A DNA stretch of 32,000 bases, taken from assembly GCA_031256725.1 (NCBI GenBank), contig JAIRQE010000011.1:6547-38546 (forward strand), written 5' to 3'. Positions within the stretch are counted from its first letter, which is position 1; every line of letters begins with the position of its first letter. Below are positions 12,543 to 32,000 of this stretch, in pieces. Source of the stretch: Propionibacteriaceae bacterium. Its GTDB lineage: Bacteria; Actinomycetota; Actinomycetes; Propionibacteriales; Propionibacteriaceae. The notes under the pieces were generated by a model. The model did not search any database. It was not told the DNA's origin and saw only the letters and a list, made by a program, of their open reading frames with translations. A program made the position numbers and the translations under genes.

Positions 12543-13508
12543 ATGGCGCCAGCAGTTTCGGAAAGAATCCTCAATCTGATGATAGCCCTGCTCGTTACCA
12601 AGAGACTCATTTCTCGCAGGGAGATCTTCCAACGTGTCTCAGGATATCTCGCTATTGATCAAGACCGTGATGTGATCACAGAGGACCCAGCTGCTGATCG
12701 GAAATTCCAAAGGGATCTTGAGAATCTCCAACAGATGGGAATTGAGGTCATCAAAGGTACGATCCAGGATGCCAATCAAGACGTGGGTGGGTACAGAATC
12801 GATCCAGGATCCTTCTATCTGCCAGACATCCACCTCACACCGCGAGAAGCCATGGTGGCAGCAATGGCCTCATCGGCATGGTCGGAAGCAAGCCTCGCCT
12901 CAGGGGTGGGGACTGCTGTTAGGAAACTGCATACCCTAGGGGAGGAAACCAGTGGAGGCCAGTCCTATTTCCTGACACCACGACTGAGGGCGGCTGAGCC
13001 TGGGCTAGCCCAACTGTGGGAGGGGTTCACAACACAGTCGACGGTGGAGTTCACCTACAACTCACGGGTACGACGGGTCAACATCTGGAGGATGATTGGA
13101 CGATCGGGTGCGTGGTACGTCTTAGGTGAGAGTGTGGGTGAGGGGCCGAAGATTTTCAAGGTCGCCCGAATTGAGGACACTACACGTGTACTGCCCACTC
13201 CCCAAGGTTATGAAACCCCCGATCAAGCAGTGATTTCTCGTGAAGCTGAGTCCTTGAATCCGCCGCCGGATTCTTCGGTTCTGGTCGCTATTCGAGTCTC
13301 GACCACAGGAGTACTACGCAAACGGGGGACACCTGTGGACAGTGATGGTCCTGAGGGGTTCGATGTGTACAGGATTCCCTATGCCCGTGTCGATGAAATT
13401 GTCTTCGCGATCTGCGCCTCAGGCCCAGATGTCCTAGTTCTGGAGGAAGGGGAGGTACGTGATCGTGTCATAGCTCAACTCCAATTCATTGCAGGAGGTC
13501 AGTCATGA
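12543..13508 (+). CDS. pafB: PafB-like HTH/WYL-domain transcriptional regulator
   Basis: The N-terminal wHTH is ERILNLMIALLVTKRLISRREIFQRVSGY. FQRDLENLQQMGIEVI, GYRIDPGSFYLPDIHLTPREA and the WYL-type GAWYVLGES closely parallel mycobacterial PafB as I remember it. The SD GGGAGGG precedes the ATG. Confidence 0.75.
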   Translation: MAPAVSERILNLMIALLVTKRLISRREIFQRVSGYLAIDQDRDVITEDPAADRKFQRDLENLQQMGIEVIKGTIQDANQDVGGYRIDPGSFYLPDIHLTPREAMVAAMASSAWSEASLASGVGTAVRKLHTLGEETSGGQSYFLTPRLRAAEPGLAQLWEGFTTQSTVEFTYNSRVRRVNIWRMIGRSGAWYVLGESVGEGPKIFKVARIEDTTRVLPTPQGYETPDQAVISREAESLNPPPDSSVLVAIRVSTTGVLRKRGTPVDSDGPEGFDVYRIPYARVDEIVFAICASGPDVLVLEEGEVRDRVIAQLQFIAGGQS

Positions 13509-14449
13509 GCCGATCCATTGAACAGGTGGCGCGCCTGCTTGTTGAGATCCCTTATATCCAAGCCCGCCCAGGAGTGAAACTATCCCAGATTGCCCGTACC
13601 CTGTCGATCACGGAGGCTCAGGTGGTAGCCGACCTTGAAGTCGCTCGATGGTGTGGGTTGCCTGGAGGGTACTCTGAGGAGCTTATCAACATCGACTATG
13701 ACATTGTTCACGGTGAGAAGGCTGTCCACATTCACAATCCCACAGGCCTTGATCGACCCATGAAGCTCACCATTGTTGAGGCTGCAAGTCTGCGCTTGGC
13801 ACTGATGGCCTTAAGGGATCTCGTCGAAAAAGACCTCGTGGGTACCATTGACTCTCTTCTGGAGAAGATACTCCTTCCAGCCCATATGAGTGTGGATCTT
13901 CACCTATCAGGAGGAGACCAAGATATCCGTGACCGTGTACAACATGCCATTCACAATGCTGAACGCCTGGAATTGGCCTATGCAGGTTCCAAGAGTGGGA
14001 AGAATAGTACCCCTGTGATCGACCCCGTGGGTGTACGCGTCCTTGAAGGGAAGTCCTATCTTGTTGCCTATCGCGTCGATAGTGATCCAGGGTGGCGCCA
14101 CTATCGCTTCGACCGTATTCTTGAGGCTCGCCCCACGGGTGAGGCAACCTTTGGACATGGGGATCCACCATCCCCAGATGATTGGGCTAAGAATCTTGCT
14201 TCCAGCGAATCAGCTACCCTGGTCGTCACCAAAGAAGGCAGATGGATTCAGGAGTACTATCCCACAATCTCAGTTGTTGACTGTGACAATGATCTTACCC
14301 GTATCACGATCCCAGTCATGGAACAGGCATGGCTTTTGAGGCTCATCCTTGGGTTGGGGGAACGTATCACATGTGTTGAACCTTCGATCTATCGTGATGC
14401 GGCTCGCAGTCTAGCTCAACAGGCACTCGACGCCTATGATGACTTGTGA
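13505..14449 (+). CDS. pafC: PafC-like HTH/WYL-domain transcriptional regulator
   Basis: VARLLVEIPYIQARPGVKLSQIARTLSITEAQVVADLEVARWCGLPG and DRPMKLTIVEAASLRLAL parallel PafC. The WYL-type motif is KSYLVAYR. It has an ATGA overlap with pafB and the SD AGGAGG. Confidence 0.75.
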   Translation: MSRSIEQVARLLVEIPYIQARPGVKLSQIARTLSITEAQVVADLEVARWCGLPGGYSEELINIDYDIVHGEKAVHIHNPTGLDRPMKLTIVEAASLRLALMALRDLVEKDLVGTIDSLLEKILLPAHMSVDLHLSGGDQDIRDRVQHAIHNAERLELAYAGSKSGKNSTPVIDPVGVRVLEGKSYLVAYRVDSDPGWRHYRFDRILEARPTGEATFGHGDPPSPDDWAKNLASSESATLVVTKEGRWIQEYYPTISVVDCDNDLTRITIPVMEQAWLLRLILGLGERITCVEPSIYRDAARSLAQQALDAYDDL

Positions 14450-21446: not shown

Positions 21447-22475
21447 ATGGCAAAAATGTTCTATGACGACGATGCGGATCTGAGTCTGATCCAGGGTCGT
21501 AAGGTTGCGATCATCGGTTACGGTTCCCAGGGCCACGCACACGCTCTGTCGCTTCGCGATTCCGGGGTTGACGTACGCGTAGGTCTGCGCGCTGGCTCGA
21601 AGTCCCGCGACAAGGCTGAGGCTGAAGGTTTGCGAGTGGTACCAACGGCCACTGCTGCTGAAGAAGCCGACCTCATCATGATTCTGGCGCCCGATCAGGT
21701 GCAGCGTGGACTCTATGCTGAAGAGATCGCCCCCCATCTCAAGCCTGGTGATGCTCTATTCTTCGCCCACGGTTTCAACATCCGCTTCGGGTACATCCAG
21801 CCTCCCGCTGGTGTGGACATCTGCATGGTTGCCCCCAAGGGTCCCGGCCACCTCGTACGCCGTGAATATGCCTCGGGTCGTGGTGTGCCTGTGATCGTGG
21901 CTGTGGAGAAGGATGAGTCCGGTCAGGGGTGGCCTCTCGCTCTTGCGTACGCTAAGGCTATTGGTGGTCTGCGCGCTGGCGGTATTGAGACCACCTTCAC
22001 TGAGGAATGCGAGACCGATCTTTTTGGTGAGCAGGCAGTCTTGTGTGGTGGTTTGTCACACCTGATCCAGGCTGGTTTCGAGACCCTCGTTCATGCTGGG
22101 TATCAGCCTGAGGTCGCTTACTTTGAGTGCCTTCACGAAGTGAAGCTCATCGTTGATCTGATGTACGAAGGTGGGATCGCCAAACAGCGGTGGAGTGTCT
22201 CCGACACCGCAGAGTACGGTGACTATGTCTCGGGGCCACGTGTGATTGATGACCACGTCAAGCAGTCCATGCAGGAAGTACTCGACGACATCCGCTCGGG
22301 TGCCTTCGCTGAACGTTTCATTGCTGACCAGGATGCTGGAGCTCCCGAGTTCAAGGCACTTCGGGCCAAGGAAGAGGCCCATCCGATTGAGGCTGTGGGT
22401 CGCGATCTTCGTAAGCTCATGAGCTGGGTCAAGGCAGATGATGCTGACTACGTCGAAGGTACCGCTGCTCGCTAG
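21447..22475 (+). CDS. ilvC: Ketol-acid reductoisomerase
   Basis: [40 protein letters not shown] is the canonical class I KARI N-terminus. The SD AAGGAG lies upstream. Confidence 0.92.
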
Positions 22476-24456: not shown

Positions 24457-27400
24457 ATGTCTGGATTTTCGCGGCCTTGGTTGGCGCCTGCTGTTATTGT
24501 TGCTTTTTCGGTGTTTATTACGATGTCACCAGTATCGAGTAATTGGAGTGCTCGTGCTGATAATGAGGTGGTAGAGGAGATTCCGGTAGTCCCCGCAAAT
24601 GATGATTCCTTTACTCCTGTTCCATTGGAAGATATATCTTCAGACAACGGGCCAGGTTCTGAAGATACAAACGATTTGCCTGGAGTCGAGGAATCTGAGG
24701 ACTCGGTAGACCAGGTGAGTGATTTTAACCCAGTTTCTGTCGTAGAGGAGATATTGCCTGAGTCTGCAGTTGTACCCTCCAGTGACTCGCTGGTTCTGGA
24801 TCCTAATAGTTATGAATCCGTATCGGGAGCGGTGGATGCAACCTTTGCCCCCTTGCCCTCACCGGAAAACCCTGAGGAAGTTGGCTTACTATCGGGTGCT
24901 TGGATGGATTTTGAGCCAGAGCCCATAGTTCAGCCTGCTAGTGAACCTGATGTTTTGATTTGGCAGCGCGCAGGTGGATCATCGTTGGTGTCGTTGGAGT
25001 CTCCAAGTGATGGACCACAAGCGAGCGATGCCCCAGTTGGTCTAGTTGTGTCCTCGTGGCCTGAGATGAATAACAAGCAAGTGACTGACAATGAGGTTCT
25101 TCATCCTTCTTTGAGGGAGAGGATAGTAATTTCAGCACTCTATGCCTATATAGCCATCATGAAGTGGGTTATCAGAGTAGTTGGTTCGTCCAAGCCAAGT
25201 CTCAAGGGCATTGCGATTCTTCCCGTTGAGCCTTTAGCGGAGTTAATTGATCGAGTAAAATCGTTACAGTCTGTTCAGTTGAAACCAGAGGGTTATGCGA
25301 TAAATGTAGGGCTGACTCCAGTTCTGGTGGCTTCAGTTGTCAATGATGTTGAGGGGGTTTTATATGCATATCAATTCACTGTGTGTCCTGGGAATACTAG
25401 TCGTGGATTAGGGGCTTGTGAACAATCTATAAAACCGGTGGCTCAATCAGGGTGGACGGGTCCGGAGTGGAGGATTCCAGAGGGAGTTTTGAGTCCTGAT
25501 TCTTATTACACGTGGACGGTGTCGGTGGGTGAAGTTTCTTCTTCTGGGGTCCCCGAAGCAGCGTCTGCCTATAATGCTGTTCGAGCATTCTCGACAGGTG
25601 GCCATTTCATTGAACCTCCCATGGCCGCAGCGCCATCAGCGCCATCGCTTACACTTCAAAGTCCATCGGATGGTGCTATTCTCTCAACAGTCAAGCCAAC
25701 GTTGGCTTTTAGTTACCTGACTCCTGCGTCGGGGACTTCCTTCAGTTATTCCATCTATGTAGATGCACTTGATAAGTCCTTGGCATGGCAGACTCCACCA
25801 ATGACCTCCAATAAGTCGTCGGTATCATATACATTACCTAATTTGCTGTTCTGGAATCGAGGTTATTCATGGCAAATTTCTGCGGCATATTGGGATCTCA
25901 AACCTAATATTATGTATGTTGCACTTACGCCAAAAAGAACTTTTTACCCAATTGTCCCCGTTGCTTCTGAGGCGAAAATTGTTTCAGATCGATTGGCTCC
26001 AATGGATCATTCAGTGAGTATAGCATCAGGTGCCTACAGTATTTCAGTATCCGATGCGAGTATTCCGATTCCTGGTGGATCACTTGCAGTAGTGCGTTCT
26101 TACCGTAGTGTCGATACGGCAGTCCGAGTTCTCGGATCTGGCTGGGCATCAATTCTTGATATGTCTATTTCTACTCCAGCTGGAGCAGCTGGGCCGATTG
26201 TGCGTTTCGCGGATGGTCATGCAGAGAGCTTCGGTACGAACCCTAATGGAAGTTACGCTAGCGCTCCAGGAAACTTGGGAACGACTCTTGTGAAAGCTTC
26301 CGCATCTACATGGCAGGTAGTAGATGATAGTGGGTTTGTGTATACCTTGGATTCTAAGGGTTTAGTTTCAATGCAGGGTGGTGAGGGAGCTAAGGTCACG
26401 GTTGCCCGTAATAGCACTGGCCAAATAACTGCTATTAAAGACGTCCTATCGAATCGAGCACTGTCTATGACTTGGACTGGTTCACATGTCACTAAAATTG
26501 CTGCCACTCCTGCCCCATCAGGGGTGTCCGCTGTATGGACATATCAATATTCTGGTGACAGGTTAGTGAAGGCCTGTTCTCCTTATAGTGGAACGACAAC
26601 ACGATGTACTTCGTATGTGTATGGCAGTTCATCCATGCCCAATGCAATCACGCAAATCACTGAGGCAAATGGTGCAATAACCAAGATTTCATACGTAAAT
26701 GGTGGTGTTGTCACGTCGGTCACGGATGCGGTCAACTCAGTATGGTCCTTCTCGCGTAAGTCGGTCACGGGCAGTACTGAGATCACGGCAACTGCTCCTG
26801 GGTCTATTAAAACTGTTTATATCATTGATTCAATGTCTCGCATTACGCGATTAGTCAATGCGCTTGGTGGGGTGCAAACGTGGACATATGACAACGGTGG
26901 GCGGTTGGCAAAATACTCTGATCCTGATGGTGAATTGGCCATGACATTCGATGATGAGGGACGAGTTTTGTCGAGAATGGTCTGGCGAGGAAGTATTACA
27001 TATAGCAAGCAGTACTACACGTACTGGACAACAAATGATGCAAAAAAGGGCAAGTTGCGCACTATTTCCGATCCAAGGAGTTCATTGGGGGTCGCCCCAT
27101 TGGTTTCTTATGCTTATGACAGCAAAGGGCGTGTAACTCAGGCTATTTTGGGGCCAGAAGCAACCGGGGTGAGAACGAAATATGCTTATACTACGGGCAC
27201 TGAGAGCGCAGTGGGTGGCGGAGTTACTCCCGCCGGGTTACTTGCAAGTGTTACTGATCCGATGGGTGCTGTGACGAAGTGGGCTTATGCCTCAAATGGT
27301 TTGGTTCGGACGCAGACAAGTCCCAGTGGTTTGGTTACCTCTTATGCCTATGACTCTCTTGGGCGTTTGGCTTCTGAGTCTGCATCTGTGAGCGGGGTTG

Positions 27401-30400
27401 AGCGAAAGAACTCTTATACTTATTATGATAATGGTTTATCTAGAGCGGTTACTGGTCCCTCTGTCCGTGATTCGGTGACTGGGTCCACTCGTCAAGGCAC
27501 TGTTATTACAGAACTTGATGCGGTTAATCTTCCAGTGAGAATTACCACGAAGGATTTGATGGCTGGTTCTTCTCAAACTGTAGCCTTGACTTATGACAAA
27601 CTGGGGCATATCACAAAGGTAGTGGGGCCTGATGGTGTCACTCAATCGGTCTATGCTTACGACGCTAGGGGTAACCTGACTTCAGAAACAGATGCTCGAG
27701 GGGCGGTAACAAAACACACCTATGATGTGCTGGGACGTGTAATCAAGAGTGTGGCGAGTGGTTACAAGGATCCCAATGTAACTACTACGCGAGACGTAAC
27801 ATTGGCTACCTATACCTGGACTGCGTCGGGCAGAGTAGCTACTGTAAGTGATGTTAATGGTTTAACCCGGGCTTATTCCTATACTCGTGATGGCCTAATT
27901 ACTTCAGTAGTAGCAAAGGGTGTTGATAAGGGTAAAGACCTTGTTGAGATGAAAACCTCGTATGATGCGATGGGGAATCCTATCATGTCATCATATAACA
28001 ATTCTACTAGCACATGGGTAGGAACCTATGATTCACTTGGACAGTTGTCAACATCTGTTGTCAATGGAGCGTTGACTGAGTATTCCTATGATGCTGCTGG
28101 TCGCATGACCATGTCTCGGTTGCGAACTCTTCTAAAAATCGATTCAACTACTACTTTTACTTATGACAAAGCTGGCCGGGTTACTGCAGTAACAGAGGGG
28201 AGTCCACAACGAATTACACGGTACGCGTATAACGAAGCTGGGGAAGTTACGGGCATTACCGACCCTCGCAGTTCGACGGCAGGTGCTGTGGCATGGACTA
28301 CAAATTACACATACGATGCTACTGGGCGTGTAGTCCAAGTGGTTGCACCGTCAGTGACTCTTGAGGGGAAGACGCAAAGACCAACTACGAAAACAGGATA
28401 TGATGTCTTTGGTAGGCCAGTGAAACAGGTTGCTCCCAACGGTGCTATTACCACTGCTACTTATGACGCTGCTGGTAGGGTCACCAAGATTGTGGAGCCT
28501 AGTGTAGTGCTTTCGACGGGTAAAGCACATACCCCAACTTCATCGTGGACGTACAACGGCGCTGGGGATGTGGTGAGTGAAACTCGACCAGATGGGTTGA
28601 AGTCGACTTTTACCTATGACAATTGGGGGCGTTTAGTTAAGGAAGTAGCGCCCGCATCTACCAGTGGTGGATCTACTCGAGTATCAACATGGGCGTATTC
28701 CAATGGAGGGATTCCTGTGTCGATGATTGATCCGCAAGGACGAAAAGTAACTCAGACTGTAAATAATCTGGGGCAAATCATCTCCCAGTCAGTCTATGAA
28801 GGATCCACCGCACTTACCTCAATATATCAGTATAATATTAGTGGAAACCTCATTAAAGTGACAGACCCTCTGGGTAAGTCTCTGACGATTGGTTACGACG
28901 CTAACCAACAGGTTACGAGTGTGAAGGACGCTGATGGTGTTACTAGTGCGTACTCGTACGATGTTGCTGGACGAACAACCAAGGTCGAATCAGGGGGGCA
29001 GACGGCAGTCATGGAGTACAACGGCCTGGGGCATATGGTGGCCATGTCGCATGTGACGGCTGGTGGATTGGTGACTATGGATACAACCAAATACACTTAC
29101 GATGTAGTTGGTAATGTTCTAAGTGTTGCAGGTCCTTTGGGTACGGGTTATTCCAGCACATGGGATGCTCTGAATAACATGCGAAGCTATACCGAGGGTG
29201 CTGCCAAAACCCAACTGGATTACGATTTATTGGGAAATCTAGTTAAAATGGTTGATCCTAGAGGTAATACAACCACAATGGGGTACAACGCCAGACGGCA
29301 GTTGATCAGCGTAGTGGAACCATCAACAACGTCTCATCCCAACGCAGCAGATAGAACATGGACCAATGCTTACGATGTGATGGGTCAAGCTGTGCAGTCT
29401 ATTGCACCTGGGGCGGTGAAAACGACCCGAACATTCAACAGCGATGGCCAGATTTTAACAGAATCAGCATCTGGAGGAGGAGTAGTATCTGCTAGTCGTT
29501 CCTTTACTTATGACGCTACTGGTCTTTTGACTGCTGAAGCTACACCCAAAGGCAATCAAACCTTTGCCTACAACGGGCGCGGTCTTATGAAGAGTTCAGC
29601 TGGACCTCTAGGGACCTCCTCATTTACGTACGATAATGCTGGTCGAGTCACATCTATTAATGATCCTTCAGGTACGACAGCATTAACATGGACAGCTGCT
29701 GGTCGGCTGGCCTCAGCCACAACAAGTGGAGTTAAGAGAGAATTCACTTATAACGGAAGCGGACAGCTAACGGCGCTTTCTCACCCGGGAGGAAAAACTA
29801 TTTACTCCTATGATGGAGCGGGGCGTTTGAGCGGGGAGACCGTGACCAAAGGACTTTTGTCTGTGGTCTACGGATGGACCGGAACCTATGATCAGGCGGG
29901 GCGTCTAGTTAAACAAGAGGTAAAACCCGCTTCAGTGAAAGGCGCAGGAGTAACCTCATATACATACAATACGAGTTCTCGGTTAACTGGATGGACTGAT
30001 CCAAGTGGAGGCAAGCACTCCTTTGCCTATGATTTGGCGGGAAATCTCACTAATAATGATGGATTAGCTGCAACATATGATCAACGCAATCGACTATCTA
30101 AGATGGGGACCACGAGCTACACCTGGAGTCCTCGCGGAACACAAACTCAAGCAGGGAATGTTGGTTATTCCTGGGATGGTTTTGATCGCTTAACTGCGGC
30201 TGGATCAAGTAAATACACATACGACAGTCTCGACCGTTTGGTCTCGTTGGACAATTCTTCCTTTACGTATGCAGGAGCCAACTTGGAACCAGCAGGTGAT
30301 GGTTCGTCCAAATGGACTCGGGTTGGAGACCAGTTGCTGGCTGTTAATCAGAAGCCGGTTGTCCAGGATCATCATGGGGATGTTCGTGCCACAATTGGTG

Positions 30401-31848
30401 GTGACGGAAGTATTGAGTCCAGTGCATCATGGAAACCCTATGGTTCCATACTCGAAGGTTCCACCACATCGGCTCTTGGTTTTCAAGGGCAGTGGACGTC
30501 TGCCACTTCTCTAGTTCACATGCAAGCTCGTTGGTATGATTCCACAACTGGCTCTTTCCTGTCCCGAGATCAAGCAACGCTTCCCGTTACTCAGGCGAAC
30601 AGGTACCAATACGCAGGTGGTAACCCAATTAACAACGCTGATCCAACGGGACAAACGGTATGTGCGTTAGCGGTTCCTTCCCTTCCGACATTCACGTTGT
30701 GTGTGGCCGCATCGGTTGGATCAATTGCCGCAGGATCAAGTGCCAGTGGCGCTGTGAGTATGAGCATCGCATCTGGGACTGCTGCGGGTACTGTTAGTGC
30801 TTCAATAGCAGGAGGTGCTGCTGTTGCTGGCACTACAGCTGGTGGAAGCCTCGCACTCGGAGCAGTTGGTGCAGGGGTTGGTGTAGGGCTATTCCTTGGC
30901 TGGGGTATTTATGCAAGTTATTTAACAGCTGAGATTTTGCGGGATGGCACAGATCTGTTCTACGAGACTCTTGAGTCGCCTTTATATCGAGACGGAGCCG
31001 ATGGAACCTATAGGTATCCTTATTCACCGCAGCGCTACGGATCCTATTTTGACTATCCACAATATCAAGCCTCTATTCGTTTCGCGGCTGAGATATATAC
31101 AAATAGTCAAGCGATTATAAAACAACTGAAAGCTATGATAGCTCGTCTTGCAGATCAGGCTATCTCTGAGATGTATCGCCAGGCTTCGTACTACGTACAG
31201 CAGGTGGTCGCACAAGCAATGAGTAGTATTGCGGCGCAATTAGAAAGACAGATATGGGAATGGGAGCAAGAGTGGAATAAGTATTTTCTTGACCAAGCTA
31301 TGTCTAAGTGGAAATTTGAGTGGGACGATCTTTCTCGCCCAATCGGGGTCTTGCCTATAGACCTTCCACGATTATGCGAATCATCTTCCTCAGCCGAGAC
31401 TTGTAAAGGCTCTGCATTGGATCACGCCCTGGGTGACATGGGTAAACCGGTTGATCTGATTACTTCATTTGCACCCATCGCGTCTTTGCCTGATGATCCA
31501 TCTCCGGGATCGAATTCTGGGAAGGGCGAGTCCCAAACGGATCAGGCTCCTGCCGAAGCTGCTAGAACCGCAGCACAAAACCCATCTAGTGACAGTGATA
31601 CCGCGCCAGCAATTCCGCGCACTAATAAAGAGGCAACGGAAGCAGCCAAGTCGCTTGGTTTCTGGAAGCTGAGAGGACCAGACAGTCACGGGCAGGCGAT
31701 TTTCACTAATGGAAAGGTGGTTATAAGTCTTGATAAAGACAGACATAATGGAGGTGTATGGAAAATGGCCAAAACAAGAGAGGATTTGAAAAGTAAGTCA
31801 ACACGTATGGGTACCTATGATGGTGAATTGAATAGGATTGGTGACTAA
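24457..31848 (+). CDS. RHS/YD-repeat polymorphic toxin with N-terminal signal peptide and long variable C-terminal region
   Basis: 2,463 aa. The signal-like N-terminus is MSGFSRPWLAPAVIVAFSVFITMSPVSSNWSARA. The RHS entry region is IPGGSLAVVRSYRSVD...LGSGWASILD. About 4 kb of degenerate YD repeats follow (YTYD..GR, Y.YD..G type). The core end is RWYDSTTGSFLSRD...NRYQYAGGNPINNADPTGQ (aa 2025-2066, nt 30529-30654). Then come 397 aa of non-repeat sequence. Confidence 0.9.
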   Translation: MSGFSRPWLAPAVIVAFSVFITMSPVSSNWSARADNEVVEEIPVVPANDDSFTPVPLEDISSDNGPGSEDTNDLPGVEESEDSVDQVSDFNPVSVVEEILPESAVVPSSDSLVLDPNSYESVSGAVDATFAPLPSPENPEEVGLLSGAWMDFEPEPIVQPASEPDVLIWQRAGGSSLVSLESPSDGPQASDAPVGLVVSSWPEMNNKQVTDNEVLHPSLRERIVISALYAYIAIMKWVIRVVGSSKPSLKGIAILPVEPLAELIDRVKSLQSVQLKPEGYAINVGLTPVLVASVVNDVEGVLYAYQFTVCPGNTSRGLGACEQSIKPVAQSGWTGPEWRIPEGVLSPDSYYTWTVSVGEVSSSGVPEAASAYNAVRAFSTGGHFIEPPMAAAPSAPSLTLQSPSDGAILSTVKPTLAFSYLTPASGTSFSYSIYVDALDKSLAWQTPPMTSNKSSVSYTLPNLLFWNRGYSWQISAAYWDLKPNIMYVALTPKRTFYPIVPVASEAKIVSDRLAPMDHSVSIASGAYSISVSDASIPIPGGSLAVVRSYRSVDTAVRVLGSGWASILDMSISTPAGAAGPIVRFADGHAESFGTNPNGSYASAPGNLGTTLVKASASTWQVVDDSGFVYTLDSKGLVSMQGGEGAKVTVARNSTGQITAIKDVLSNRALSMTWTGSHVTKIAATPAPSGVSAVWTYQYSGDRLVKACSPYSGTTTRCTSYVYGSSSMPNAITQITEANGAITKISYVNGGVVTSVTDAVNSVWSFSRKSVTGSTEITATAPGSIKTVYIIDSMSRITRLVNALGGVQTWTYDNGGRLAKYSDPDGELAMTFDDEGRVLSRMVWRGSITYSKQYYTYWTTNDAKKGKLRTISDPRSSLGVAPLVSYAYDSKGRVTQAILGPEATGVRTKYAYTTGTESAVGGGVTPAGLLASVTDPMGAVTKWAYASNGLVRTQTSPSGLVTSYAYDSLGRLASESASVSGVERKNSYTYYDNGLSRAVTGPSVRDSVTGSTRQGTVITELDAVNLPVRITTKDLMAGSSQTVALTYDKLGHITKVVGPDGVTQSVYAYDARGNLTSETDARGAVTKHTYDVLGRVIKSVASGYKDPNVTTTRDVTLATYTWTASGRVATVSDVNGLTRAYSYTRDGLITSVVAKGVDKGKDLVEMKTSYDAMGNPIMSSYNNSTSTWVGTYDSLGQLSTSVVNGALTEYSYDAAGRMTMSRLRTLLKIDSTTTFTYDKAGRVTAVTEGSPQRITRYAYNEAGEVTGITDPRSSTAGAVAWTTNYTYDATGRVVQVVAPSVTLEGKTQRPTTKTGYDVFGRPVKQVAPNGAITTATYDAAGRVTKIVEPSVVLSTGKAHTPTSSWTYNGAGDVVSETRPDGLKSTFTYDNWGRLVKEVAPASTSGGSTRVSTWAYSNGGIPVSMIDPQGRKVTQTVNNLGQIISQSVYEGSTALTSIYQYNISGNLIKVTDPLGKSLTIGYDANQQVTSVKDADGVTSAYSYDVAGRTTKVESGGQTAVMEYNGLGHMVAMSHVTAGGLVTMDTTKYTYDVVGNVLSVAGPLGTGYSSTWDALNNMRSYTEGAAKTQLDYDLLGNLVKMVDPRGNTTTMGYNARRQLISVVEPSTTSHPNAADRTWTNAYDVMGQAVQSIAPGAVKTTRTFNSDGQILTESASGGGVVSASRSFTYDATGLLTAEATPKGNQTFAYNGRGLMKSSAGPLGTSSFTYDNAGRVTSINDPSGTTALTWTAAGRLASATTSGVKREFTYNGSGQLTALSHPGGKTIYSYDGAGRLSGETVTKGLLSVVYGWTGTYDQAGRLVKQEVKPASVKGAGVTSYTYNTSSRLTGWTDPSGGKHSFAYDLAGNLTNNDGLAATYDQRNRLSKMGTTSYTWSPRGTQTQAGNVGYSWDGFDRLTAAGSSKYTYDSLDRLVSLDNSSFTYAGANLEPAGDGSSKWTRVGDQLLAVNQKPVVQDHHGDVRATIGGDGSIESSASWKPYGSILEGSTTSALGFQGQWTSATSLVHMQARWYDSTTGSFLSRDQATLPVTQANRYQYAGGNPINNADPTGQTVCALAVPSLPTFTLCVAASVGSIAAGSSASGAVSMSIASGTAAGTVSASIAGGAAVAGTTAGGSLALGAVGAGVGVGLFLGWGIYASYLTAEILRDGTDLFYETLESPLYRDGADGTYRYPYSPQRYGSYFDYPQYQASIRFAAEIYTNSQAIIKQLKAMIARLADQAISEMYRQASYYVQQVVAQAMSSIAAQLERQIWEWEQEWNKYFLDQAMSKWKFEWDDLSRPIGVLPIDLPRLCESSSSAETCKGSALDHALGDMGKPVDLITSFAPIASLPDDPSPGSNSGKGESQTDQAPAEAARTAAQNPSSDSDTAPAIPRTNKEATEAAKSLGFWKLRGPDSHGQAIFTNGKVVISLDKDRHNGGVWKMAKTREDLKSKSTRMGTYDGELNRIGD

Positions 31849-31851
31849 GTC

Positions 31852-32000
31852 ATGGACTTTGAGGATCGATGGGCGGTGTGGCTGCCTGGATTGACGGCGG
31901 CTCAGGCGGATGAGATTGTTGAACTGTCGCAGGAATGGCCTAATATCTTTGTGTCTGATACAGATAGTCCGCAGGATTTCTTGTTTATTCCATGGGGGTA
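31852..32000 (+). CDS. Putative cognate immunity protein (5' part only, truncated by window end)
   Basis: The ATG lies 3 nt after the rhs stop, on the same strand. The ORF is open to the window edge (MDFEDRWAVWLPGLTAAQADEIVELSQEWPNIFVSDTDSPQDFLFIPWG...). The call rests on the canonical toxin-immunity position. I recognise no family. Confidence 0.45.
   Translation, partial: MDFEDRWAVWLPGLTAAQADEIVELSQEWPNIFVSDTDSPQDFLFIPWG

Follow-up and report, generated by a model that had tools for sequence, protein, structure and literature searches.

What kind of toxin does an RHS protein carry at its C-terminal tip, and what does the gene directly behind it encode? The question is raised by a 32,000-nt stretch of DNA, here called the window, from a metagenome-assembled Propionibacteriaceae (Actinomycetota) genome, which ends with a large RHS gene and the beginning of a further open reading frame (ORF). 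A sequence-only reading of the window had taken the last 75 amino acids (aa) of the RHS protein for a HicA-like toxin module coupled to an unrecognised downstream ORF. By profile match, these terminal 75 aa are the known polymorphic-toxin RNase domain Ntox21. The locus as a whole very probably encodes a Sec-exported, WapA-like RHS toxin with an Ntox21 16S rRNase tip, followed by its cognate immunity gene, a picture drawn from family membership, the predicted fold, conserved catalytic residues, the RHS architecture and a conserved gene pair. The gene and its toxin module are located as follows.

24457 to 31848, forward strand: RHS polymorphic toxin gene (carrier plus toxin), 2463 aa, stop codon included; from the ORF list, translation, Pfam and NCBIfam.
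31621 to 31845, forward strand: Ntox21 RNase toxin module, aa 2389-2463; from Pfam, a PDB sequence match, and an AlphaFold model searched with Foldseek.

The last 75 residues of the RHS protein (aa 2389-2463) read TNKEATEAAKSLGFWKLRGPDSHGQAIFTNGKVVISLDKDRHNGGVWKMAKTREDLKSKSTRMGTYDGELNRIGD, identical to those quoted in the sequence-only reading, and the motifs LGFWKLR, GPDSH, VVISLD...H and GTYDGELNRIG are all there. The module matched Ntox21 (PF15526) with E=1.1e-23 and 83.8 bits, passing the gathering threshold of 25 bits, over profile positions 2-71 of 71; the Pfam envelope covers aa 2396-2463 (nt 31642-31845), and no family besides Ntox21 matched at E<=10. The proposed location of a terminal toxin module on an RHS carrier was borne out by this match at the C-terminus (Pfam E=1e-23, far beyond chance), and the proposed RNase nature of the module holds by family. 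The caveat that the module might belong to a dedicated polymorphic-toxin family was correct, that family being Ntox21. All database homologues of the module (17/17, identity 48-79%) carry PF15526. When the PDB was searched with the module sequence, one protein was returned, chain A of 4NTQ, the CdiA-CT of E. cloacae (residues 162-235, E=5.1e-8).

Conservation, AlphaFold modeling of the module and its hhalign comparison with HicA were all based on a family alignment of 16 sequences. The resulting AlphaFold model was of medium quality (mean pLDDT 76), with a helix at residues 3-11, five strands and one 4-residue helix, the strands standing at the end. Searched against the PDB with Foldseek, the model gave 4NTQ_A as the sole match with E<=0.001 among the 50 matches listed (E=1.5e-4, probability 1.00, TM 0.59), suggesting with moderate confidence that the module folds like CdiA-CT(ECL). 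Seventeen positions are invariant in the 16 homologues (module numbering): I35, D38, H42, G44, G45, W47, K48, A50, T61, R62, G64, T65, D67, L70, N71, G74 and D75. The published Ntox21 signature consists of K, [DS]xDxxxH, K, RxG[ST] and RxxD (Zhang et al. 2012, PMC3482391); in the RHS protein we found SLDKDRH at aa 2424-2430, K2436, RMGT at aa 2450-2453 and RIGD at aa 2460-2463. The invariant positions D38, H42, K48, R62, G64, T65 and D75 agree with this signature. The same source describes Ntox21 as the family of E. cloacae CdiA-CT, carried on RHS and filamentous-haemagglutinin (FilH) proteins, Actinobacteria included (PMC3482391).

The closest characterised relative, CdiA-CT(ECL) of E. cloacae ATCC 13047, belongs to the same Pfam family over the full profile, and its alignment with the module spans the whole 74-aa nuclease domain. 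The two share a D, D, H, K active site and a C-terminal R-x-G-T-Y-D-x-x-L-N-R-I-x-D. They differ in length, the module having six additional residues after K2436 and a loop before the SHGQ motif that is 5 residues shorter, and in carrier, a Sec-type actinobacterial RHS protein here and a proteobacterial type V (CdiB/CdiA) filament in CdiA-CT(ECL). Residues D203, D205, H207 and K214 of CdiA-CT(ECL) align with D2426, D2428, H2430 and K2436 of the RHS protein, and three module positions in this stretch (D38, H42 and K48) are invariant in the 16 homologues.

31732 to 31764, forward strand: predicted active-site stretch, with D2426 (nt 31732), D2428 (31738), H2430 (31744) and K2436 (31762); from the alignment with CdiA-CT(ECL).

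According to PMC5435912 and PMC9086364, CdiA-CT(ECL) resembles the nuclease domain of colicin E3 and cuts 16S rRNA between A1493 and G1494, and its active site is given as D203/D205/H207/K214 in PMC9086364. The Ntox21 domain of gram-positive ABP toxins is likewise assigned 16S rRNA cleavage, marked as experimentally validated, in the table of a 2026 review (PMC13460014). By analogy with these enzymes, 16S rRNA is probably the substrate of the module. A mode of killing like that of the colicin E3 cytotoxic domain, through the same 16S rRNA bond, may be supposed from the literature; the delivery system of colicin E3 differs from that of the module, and no Im3-like immunity protein occurs here.

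Two other accounts of the module have to be set against an Ntox21 domain that cuts 16S rRNA. In the account given by the sequence-only reading, the module would be a HicA-type mRNA interferase with the fold of a double-stranded RNA-binding domain (dsRBD), recruited as RHS cargo, with its catalytic histidine in G-x2-SH and its motif order broken by an insert. The motif order is indeed present, the module is small, opens with a helix ahead of its strands and belongs to an RNase family, and H2411 is kept in CdiA-CT(ECL) as H188. HicA itself (PF07927, 6HPB) is likewise a small RNase toxin neutralised by the product of an adjacent gene, and its order of short motifs is superficially alike; it differs from the module in topology, in the conserved histidine and in setting, being part of an intracellular type II toxin-antitoxin (TA) system and not an exported interbacterial toxin. 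When aa 2389-2463 were compared with HicA and Ntox families by profile and by Foldseek, as had been suggested, Ntox21 was matched and HicA was not. HicA_toxin (PF07927) demonstrated no Pfam match to the module at E<=10, and hhalign between the 16-sequence Ntox21 alignment and E. coli HicA (the query being confirmed as 6HPB_A, E=1.9e-36) gave a probability of 0.17% with 1 aligned column. None of the 50 fold matches listed by Foldseek was HicA; two dsRBD chains were among them, at E~3-4.5 and TM 0.18. The modelled module ends in beta strands, without the C-terminal helix of a dsRBD (alpha-beta-beta-beta-alpha). Of the 14 homologues in which the column of H2411, the supposed catalytic SH histidine, is covered, six have R, S, N or K there, and the invariant histidine is H2430 in SLDKDRH. 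The supposed extra insert, NGGVWKMAKTREDLKSKS, turned out to be the most conserved part of the family, with H42, G44, G45, W47, K48 and A50 invariant in 16 homologues, and this stretch (HNGGVWKMA...) carries the catalytic lysine. The HicA-like order of the motifs, which are short strings low in information, is therefore a coincidence. With neither profile, sequence nor fold support for HicA or a dsRBD (Pfam, hhalign, Foldseek), there is no longer a case for a type II TA toxin fold unusually recruited as cargo. The HicA identity was rejected, as profile, fold, topology and histidine conservation are all contrary to it, and we regard it as extremely improbable.

The second account keeps Ntox21 and changes the target: the module might cut tRNA anticodon loops, or RNA non-specifically, and act through tRNA or mRNA depletion and not through damage to the decoding centre. 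Several points do weigh on this side and against a 16S rRNA target. Zhang et al. 2012 listed the family originally as a tRNase, with the annotation "shown to be a tRNase" (PMC3482391), and substrate switches are common between close relatives among BECR-fold toxins (PMC9086364). The substrate is extrapolated from CdiA-CT(ECL), a characterised enzyme that is only 43-55% identical to the module; the module contains a six-residue TREDLK segment that CdiA-CT(ECL) lacks, and D2428, the equivalent of D205, varies within the clade, several close relatives having DETSH or DNTSH. The module had no Pfam match to colicin E3, and no ColE3 chain was among the 50 Foldseek matches listed, so that the link to ColE3 rests on the literature. 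Set against these points, 16S rRNA cleavage is reported in both cited characterisations, that of E. cloacae CdiA-CT and that of gram-positive ABP Ntox21 in the review table, and the active-site D, H and K together with the C-terminal RxGT...LNRIGD region are common to the module and CdiA-CT(ECL). A target other than 16S rRNA appears quite unlikely to us.

The ORF directly behind the RHS gene is the candidate for the immunity gene of this toxin.

31852 to 32000, forward strand: first 49 codons of a probable immunity gene, cut by the window edge; from translation, homologue alignment and synteny.
31840 to 31844, forward strand: GGTGA, Shine-Dalgarno-like, 7 nt upstream of ATG 31852 and inside the end of the toxin ORF; from the sequence.

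The position of the next ORF, 3 nt past the stop, had been described correctly: TAA lies at 31846-31848, the bases GTC follow, and the ATG at 31852 opens a translation (MDFEDRWAVWLPGLTAAQADEIVELSQEWPNIF...) that leaves the window edge. The ORF reads MDFEDRWAVWLPGLTAAQADEIVELSQEWPNIFVSDTDSPQDFLFIPWG, running off the window. We infer that toxin and downstream ORF are translationally coupled. The downstream ORF is also in frame with the RHS gene, with only TAA GTC between them (31846-31854), and read-through of the stop would fuse the toxin to the putative immunity protein; this in-frame arrangement is probably coincidental.

The 49-aa fragment had no match in Pfam, the PDB or the word index. A full HMMER scan with the fragment against 1.84 billion representative proteins yielded three relatives, P0023, P0024 and P0025, and a profile search added P0026 (208 aa), making four family members in total among 5.8 billion protein clusters. 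P0023 (192 aa) matches the window ORF with 100% identity from residue 14 on and is evidently the same protein, its call beginning at an internal TTG; the alignments of P0024 (207 aa) and P0025 (208 aa) with the window ORF begin at residue 2. The source call of P0023 starts at this TTG (LTAAQ..., window 31888-31893), 13 codons past ATG 31852. Upstream of the TTG, residues W7, L11, P12 and G13 are conserved in the homologues, indicating that ATG 31852 is the true start and that the P0023 call is N-terminally truncated. The full downstream ORF, which the sequence-only reading had proposed to obtain, could be completed through the identical database protein P0023, giving a predicted protein of about 205 aa. 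In BLASTP its two halves prove to be homologous (E=8e-10; 87 aa aligned at 26% identity), and by this self-comparison the protein is an internal tandem duplication; the repeated unit measures ~95 aa and follows the pattern W-x-V-W-L-P-G-L...Q-A...W-P-N...W-D-Y-S-T-T-R-M-M. The sequence has no apparent signal peptide, and the protein is presumably cytoplasmic.

The family appears to be very rare. P0023, P0024 and P0025 belong to no Pfam or NCBIfam family. A profile search of loci found no relatives of the downstream protein in 185,579 species-representative genomes, and a profile search of the JGI metagenome collection returned one contig only, L011, which had already been found. Genome contigs and metagenome contigs contained 0 matches to degenerate DNA patterns of the ORF's N-terminus, and the protein had no tblastn match among plasmids.

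Where homologues do occur, their gene order is constant. P0024, P0025 and P0026 each start 1-4 nt after an ORF in which Ntox21 is carried on PT-HINT (PT-HINT-Ntox21), in five contigs from four samples. The PT-HINT-Ntox21 ORF stands directly before the homologue in contigs L009, L010 and L011, and likewise in L012. The remaining contig, L008 (2-2514), is a metagenomic orphan-cassette array, in which the end of a PT-HINT-Colicin_E5 toxin is followed by two small ORFs, a truncated PT-HINT-Ntox21 ORF (139 aa) and then the 207-aa homologue. The Ntox21 domains of these homologue loci are 63-70% identical to the window module. The carrier thus switches between RHS and PT-HINT while the pair of toxin and following ORF persists, which is the signature of a toxin-immunity module. 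The suggestion that the coupled ORF neutralises the toxin accordingly stood up in gene order, all homologues of the ORF lying 1-4 nt behind Ntox21 ORFs. We consider it likely, with good confidence, that the downstream protein is the immunity protein of the Ntox21 toxin.

A different family was found behind other relatives of the toxin. The closest stand-alone Ntox21 relatives, P0001 and P0003, are 62-65% identical to the module, and they precede, by 1-2 nt, a different, conserved ORF of 174-181 aa. The stand-alone relatives are short ORFs of 86-104 aa.

Contig L001, 2185-2730, and contig L003, 5264-5788, also in L002 and L004-L006: second putative Ntox21 immunity ORF family, a conserved ORF after stand-alone Ntox21.

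This second family shows the motifs KY.P...EWT..SD.G and GYDYY and has no Pfam match, and hhalign between the two putative immunity families gave a probability of 0.2%, that is, no relationship. We regard the 174-181-aa ORFs as a second, unnamed, putative Ntox21 immunity family. One toxin fold neutralised by unrelated immunity folds has been described before (PMC9424270), and the presence of two unrelated families behind Ntox21 relatives agrees with that observation.

The downstream ORF could also have nothing to do with immunity: it might be an unrelated passenger, such as an accessory protein or chaperone of the toxin or the gene that opens another cassette, with the true immunity gene lying beyond the window. 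Some observations pull in that direction and weaken the case for an immunity protein. The immunity role is supported by gene order only, and the nearest toxin relatives, P0001 and P0003, are paired with a different downstream family. At ~205 aa, with an internal duplication, the protein exceeds the size of many immunity proteins that counter a 70-aa toxin. It shows no similarity to known immunity families, Imm41, barstar and CdiI(ECL) included: Imm or barstar models gave no Pfam match to it at E<=1, and PDB searches with the single downstream sequence and with a profile returned noise (E>0.5), CdiI(ECL) not being matched. An AlphaFold model of the homologue P0024, built on a shallow alignment, was mainly helical with pLDDT 53.5, and a fold search with it gave no informative match. 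These points have to be balanced against the 1-4 nt gap behind Ntox21 in 5/5 contexts found, whether the carrier is RHS or PT-HINT, and against L008, where the homologue sits in an orphan toxin cassette at the position canonical for immunity genes. The protein is without an apparent signal peptide and presumably cytoplasmic, and unrelated immunity folds for one toxin fold are documented (PMC9424270). A function other than immunity is therefore unlikely in our judgment.

The immunity families so far associated with Ntox21 are Imm41 and Imm-Barstar (Zhang et al. 2012, PMC3482391) and FdL-Imm (PMC9424270). Like the downstream ORF of the window, they occupy the genomic slot directly behind the toxin. 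The downstream protein differs from Imm41 and barstar in its tandem ~95-aa duplication and, in a comparison that covered the Pfam Imm and barstar models, has no match at E<=1; with CdiI(ECL) it has no detectable similarity. It is tentatively proposed, as a real possibility, that the downstream gene founds an undescribed and very rare Ntox21-specific immunity family of ~205 aa, built of tandem ~95-aa units, in a toxin clade otherwise paired with the second, unrelated family.

The carrier of the toxin has the architecture of an RHS protein throughout. Pfam identified 24 RHS_repeat stretches in the 2463-aa protein (E=3.7e-116), and the NCBIfam models YD_repeat_2x, RHS_core and Rhs_assc_core all matched it. 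Its further parts are the following.

24457 to 24558, forward strand: probable Sec signal peptide, aa 1-34, MSGFSRPWLAPAVIVAFSVFITMSPVSSNWSARA, then DNE; from a hydrophobic window at aa 7-28 and an AXA-like ARA at aa 32-34 in the sequence.
26008 to 26232, forward strand: DUF6531 (PF20148), aa 518-592, which usually accompanies RHS repeat shells on their N-terminal side; Pfam E=1.5e-8.
30433 to 30654, forward strand: RHS repeat-associated core domain, aa 1993-2066; NCBIfam TIGR03696, E=6.7e-18, profile positions 2-76 of 76.
30655 to 30912, forward strand: Gly/Ala/Ser-rich hydrophobic stretch, aa 2067-2152, opening the C-terminal region; two Kyte-Doolittle segments >1.7.
30913 to 31620, forward strand: linker, aa 2153-2388, Tyr-rich, then helical or coiled-coil-like, then Pro/Ser/Asp-rich; from the translation.

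A motif search placed the end of the core domain at PINNADPTG (aa 2057-2065, nt 30625-30651), after which a 397-aa C-terminal region remains; this core marks where the conserved shell gives way to the variable C-terminal region. The features of RHS/YD polymorphic toxins are present together, namely the repeats, a core with PxxxxDPxG, a variable C-terminal toxin and an ORF 3 nt after the stop, and the 2463-aa protein is a genuine RHS toxin. The N-terminus of the protein is a probable Sec signal peptide. The region between core and toxin (aa 2067-2388, ~320 aa, nt 30655-31620) matched no Pfam or NCBIfam family and had no plasmid match by tblastn; within it, the Gly/Ala/Ser-rich stretch of aa 2067-2152 is a candidate segment for membrane interaction or entry in a gram-positive RHS toxin. 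Two observations speak against the export and delivery part of the overall picture, in that the signal peptide was judged by eye and no genes for secretion or delivery were recognised in the window.

Koskiniemi et al. 2013 reportedly described WapA of B. subtilis and other gram-positive RHS/YD-repeat proteins as contact-dependent toxins. WapA is said to consist of a signal peptide, a long YD/RHS shell, a core motif and a variable C-terminal RNase, with the immunity gene directly downstream, and its toxins are reportedly tRNases of families other than Ntox21. The RHS protein of the window resembles WapA in this overall layout, from the probable signal peptide to the downstream immunity slot. 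It is set apart from WapA by the 320-aa unclassified pre-toxin region with its Gly/Ala-rich hydrophobic stretch, and Pfam detected no WapA-type cell-wall-binding repeats in the RHS protein.

Taking carrier, toxin and downstream gene together, the following course of events can be proposed. The RHS protein would be exported by Sec. Encapsulation in an RHS shell and autoproteolysis at the core motif are established RHS biology, and the C-terminal region would here be enclosed in the RHS shell and released autoproteolytically at the core motif. It would then be delivered into a neighbouring gram-positive competitor cell, possibly helped by the hydrophobic Gly/Ala segment. In the target cell, the Ntox21 domain would act as a metal-independent endoribonuclease, with catalysis by D2426, H2430 and K2436 and possibly D2428, and would cut the decoding centre of 16S rRNA at A1493/G1494 (E. 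coli numbering), so that translation stops. In the producer, the ~205-aa protein, translationally coupled to the toxin, would bind the toxin and block it stoichiometrically.

The rest of the window is made up of housekeeping genes, among them genes for pafB/C-like WYL regulators and a DSHCT helicase, hisF, ilvBNC, maf, birA, scpA and parA-like genes. Five of the encoded housekeeping proteins are exact matches to entries of a Propionibacteriaceae genome assembled from a metagenome, MDR0488503.1 being one example. Two adjacent WYL-domain regulators (pafB/pafC-like) lie at 12543-14446, upstream of a DAGK/YegS-like kinase and the DSHCT (HelY-type) helicase; this order is typical actinobacterial housekeeping synteny and has no bearing on the toxin. 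The GC content of the RHS gene is ~0.47 compared to 0.55-0.60 for neighbouring genes, and its GC at third codon positions is ~0.40 compared to 0.60 for ilvC (21447-22472). The difference in composition between the RHS gene and its neighbours suggests that the whole RHS locus, beyond the toxin tip alone, was horizontally acquired. An independent assembly of run SRR14710887 contains the Logan contig L007, which equals window positions 11578-31824 at 100% identity and ends inside the Ntox21 module, 24 nt short of the RHS stop codon. Strain-level polymorphism at the toxin/immunity tip may account for this break in the SRR14710887 sample.

For the field as a whole little changes. RHS-borne Ntox21 was already catalogued in Actinobacteria in 2012, and for Ntox21 a structure has been solved and the target is known; the main value of the present analysis is corrective, in that HicA as RHS cargo was a coincidence of motif order. 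What has not yet been described, as far as searched, is the putative immunity family with its duplication and the unclassified region ahead of the toxin. This region, with its hydrophobic segment, may be relevant to the passage of gram-positive RHS toxins through the target membrane. Two unrelated putative immunity families beside near-identical toxins make a compact system for the replacement of immunity specificity with a constant toxin. If the new duplicated immunity family is real, its pseudo-dimeric protein might have a new mode of toxin binding, or accommodate two toxin molecules.

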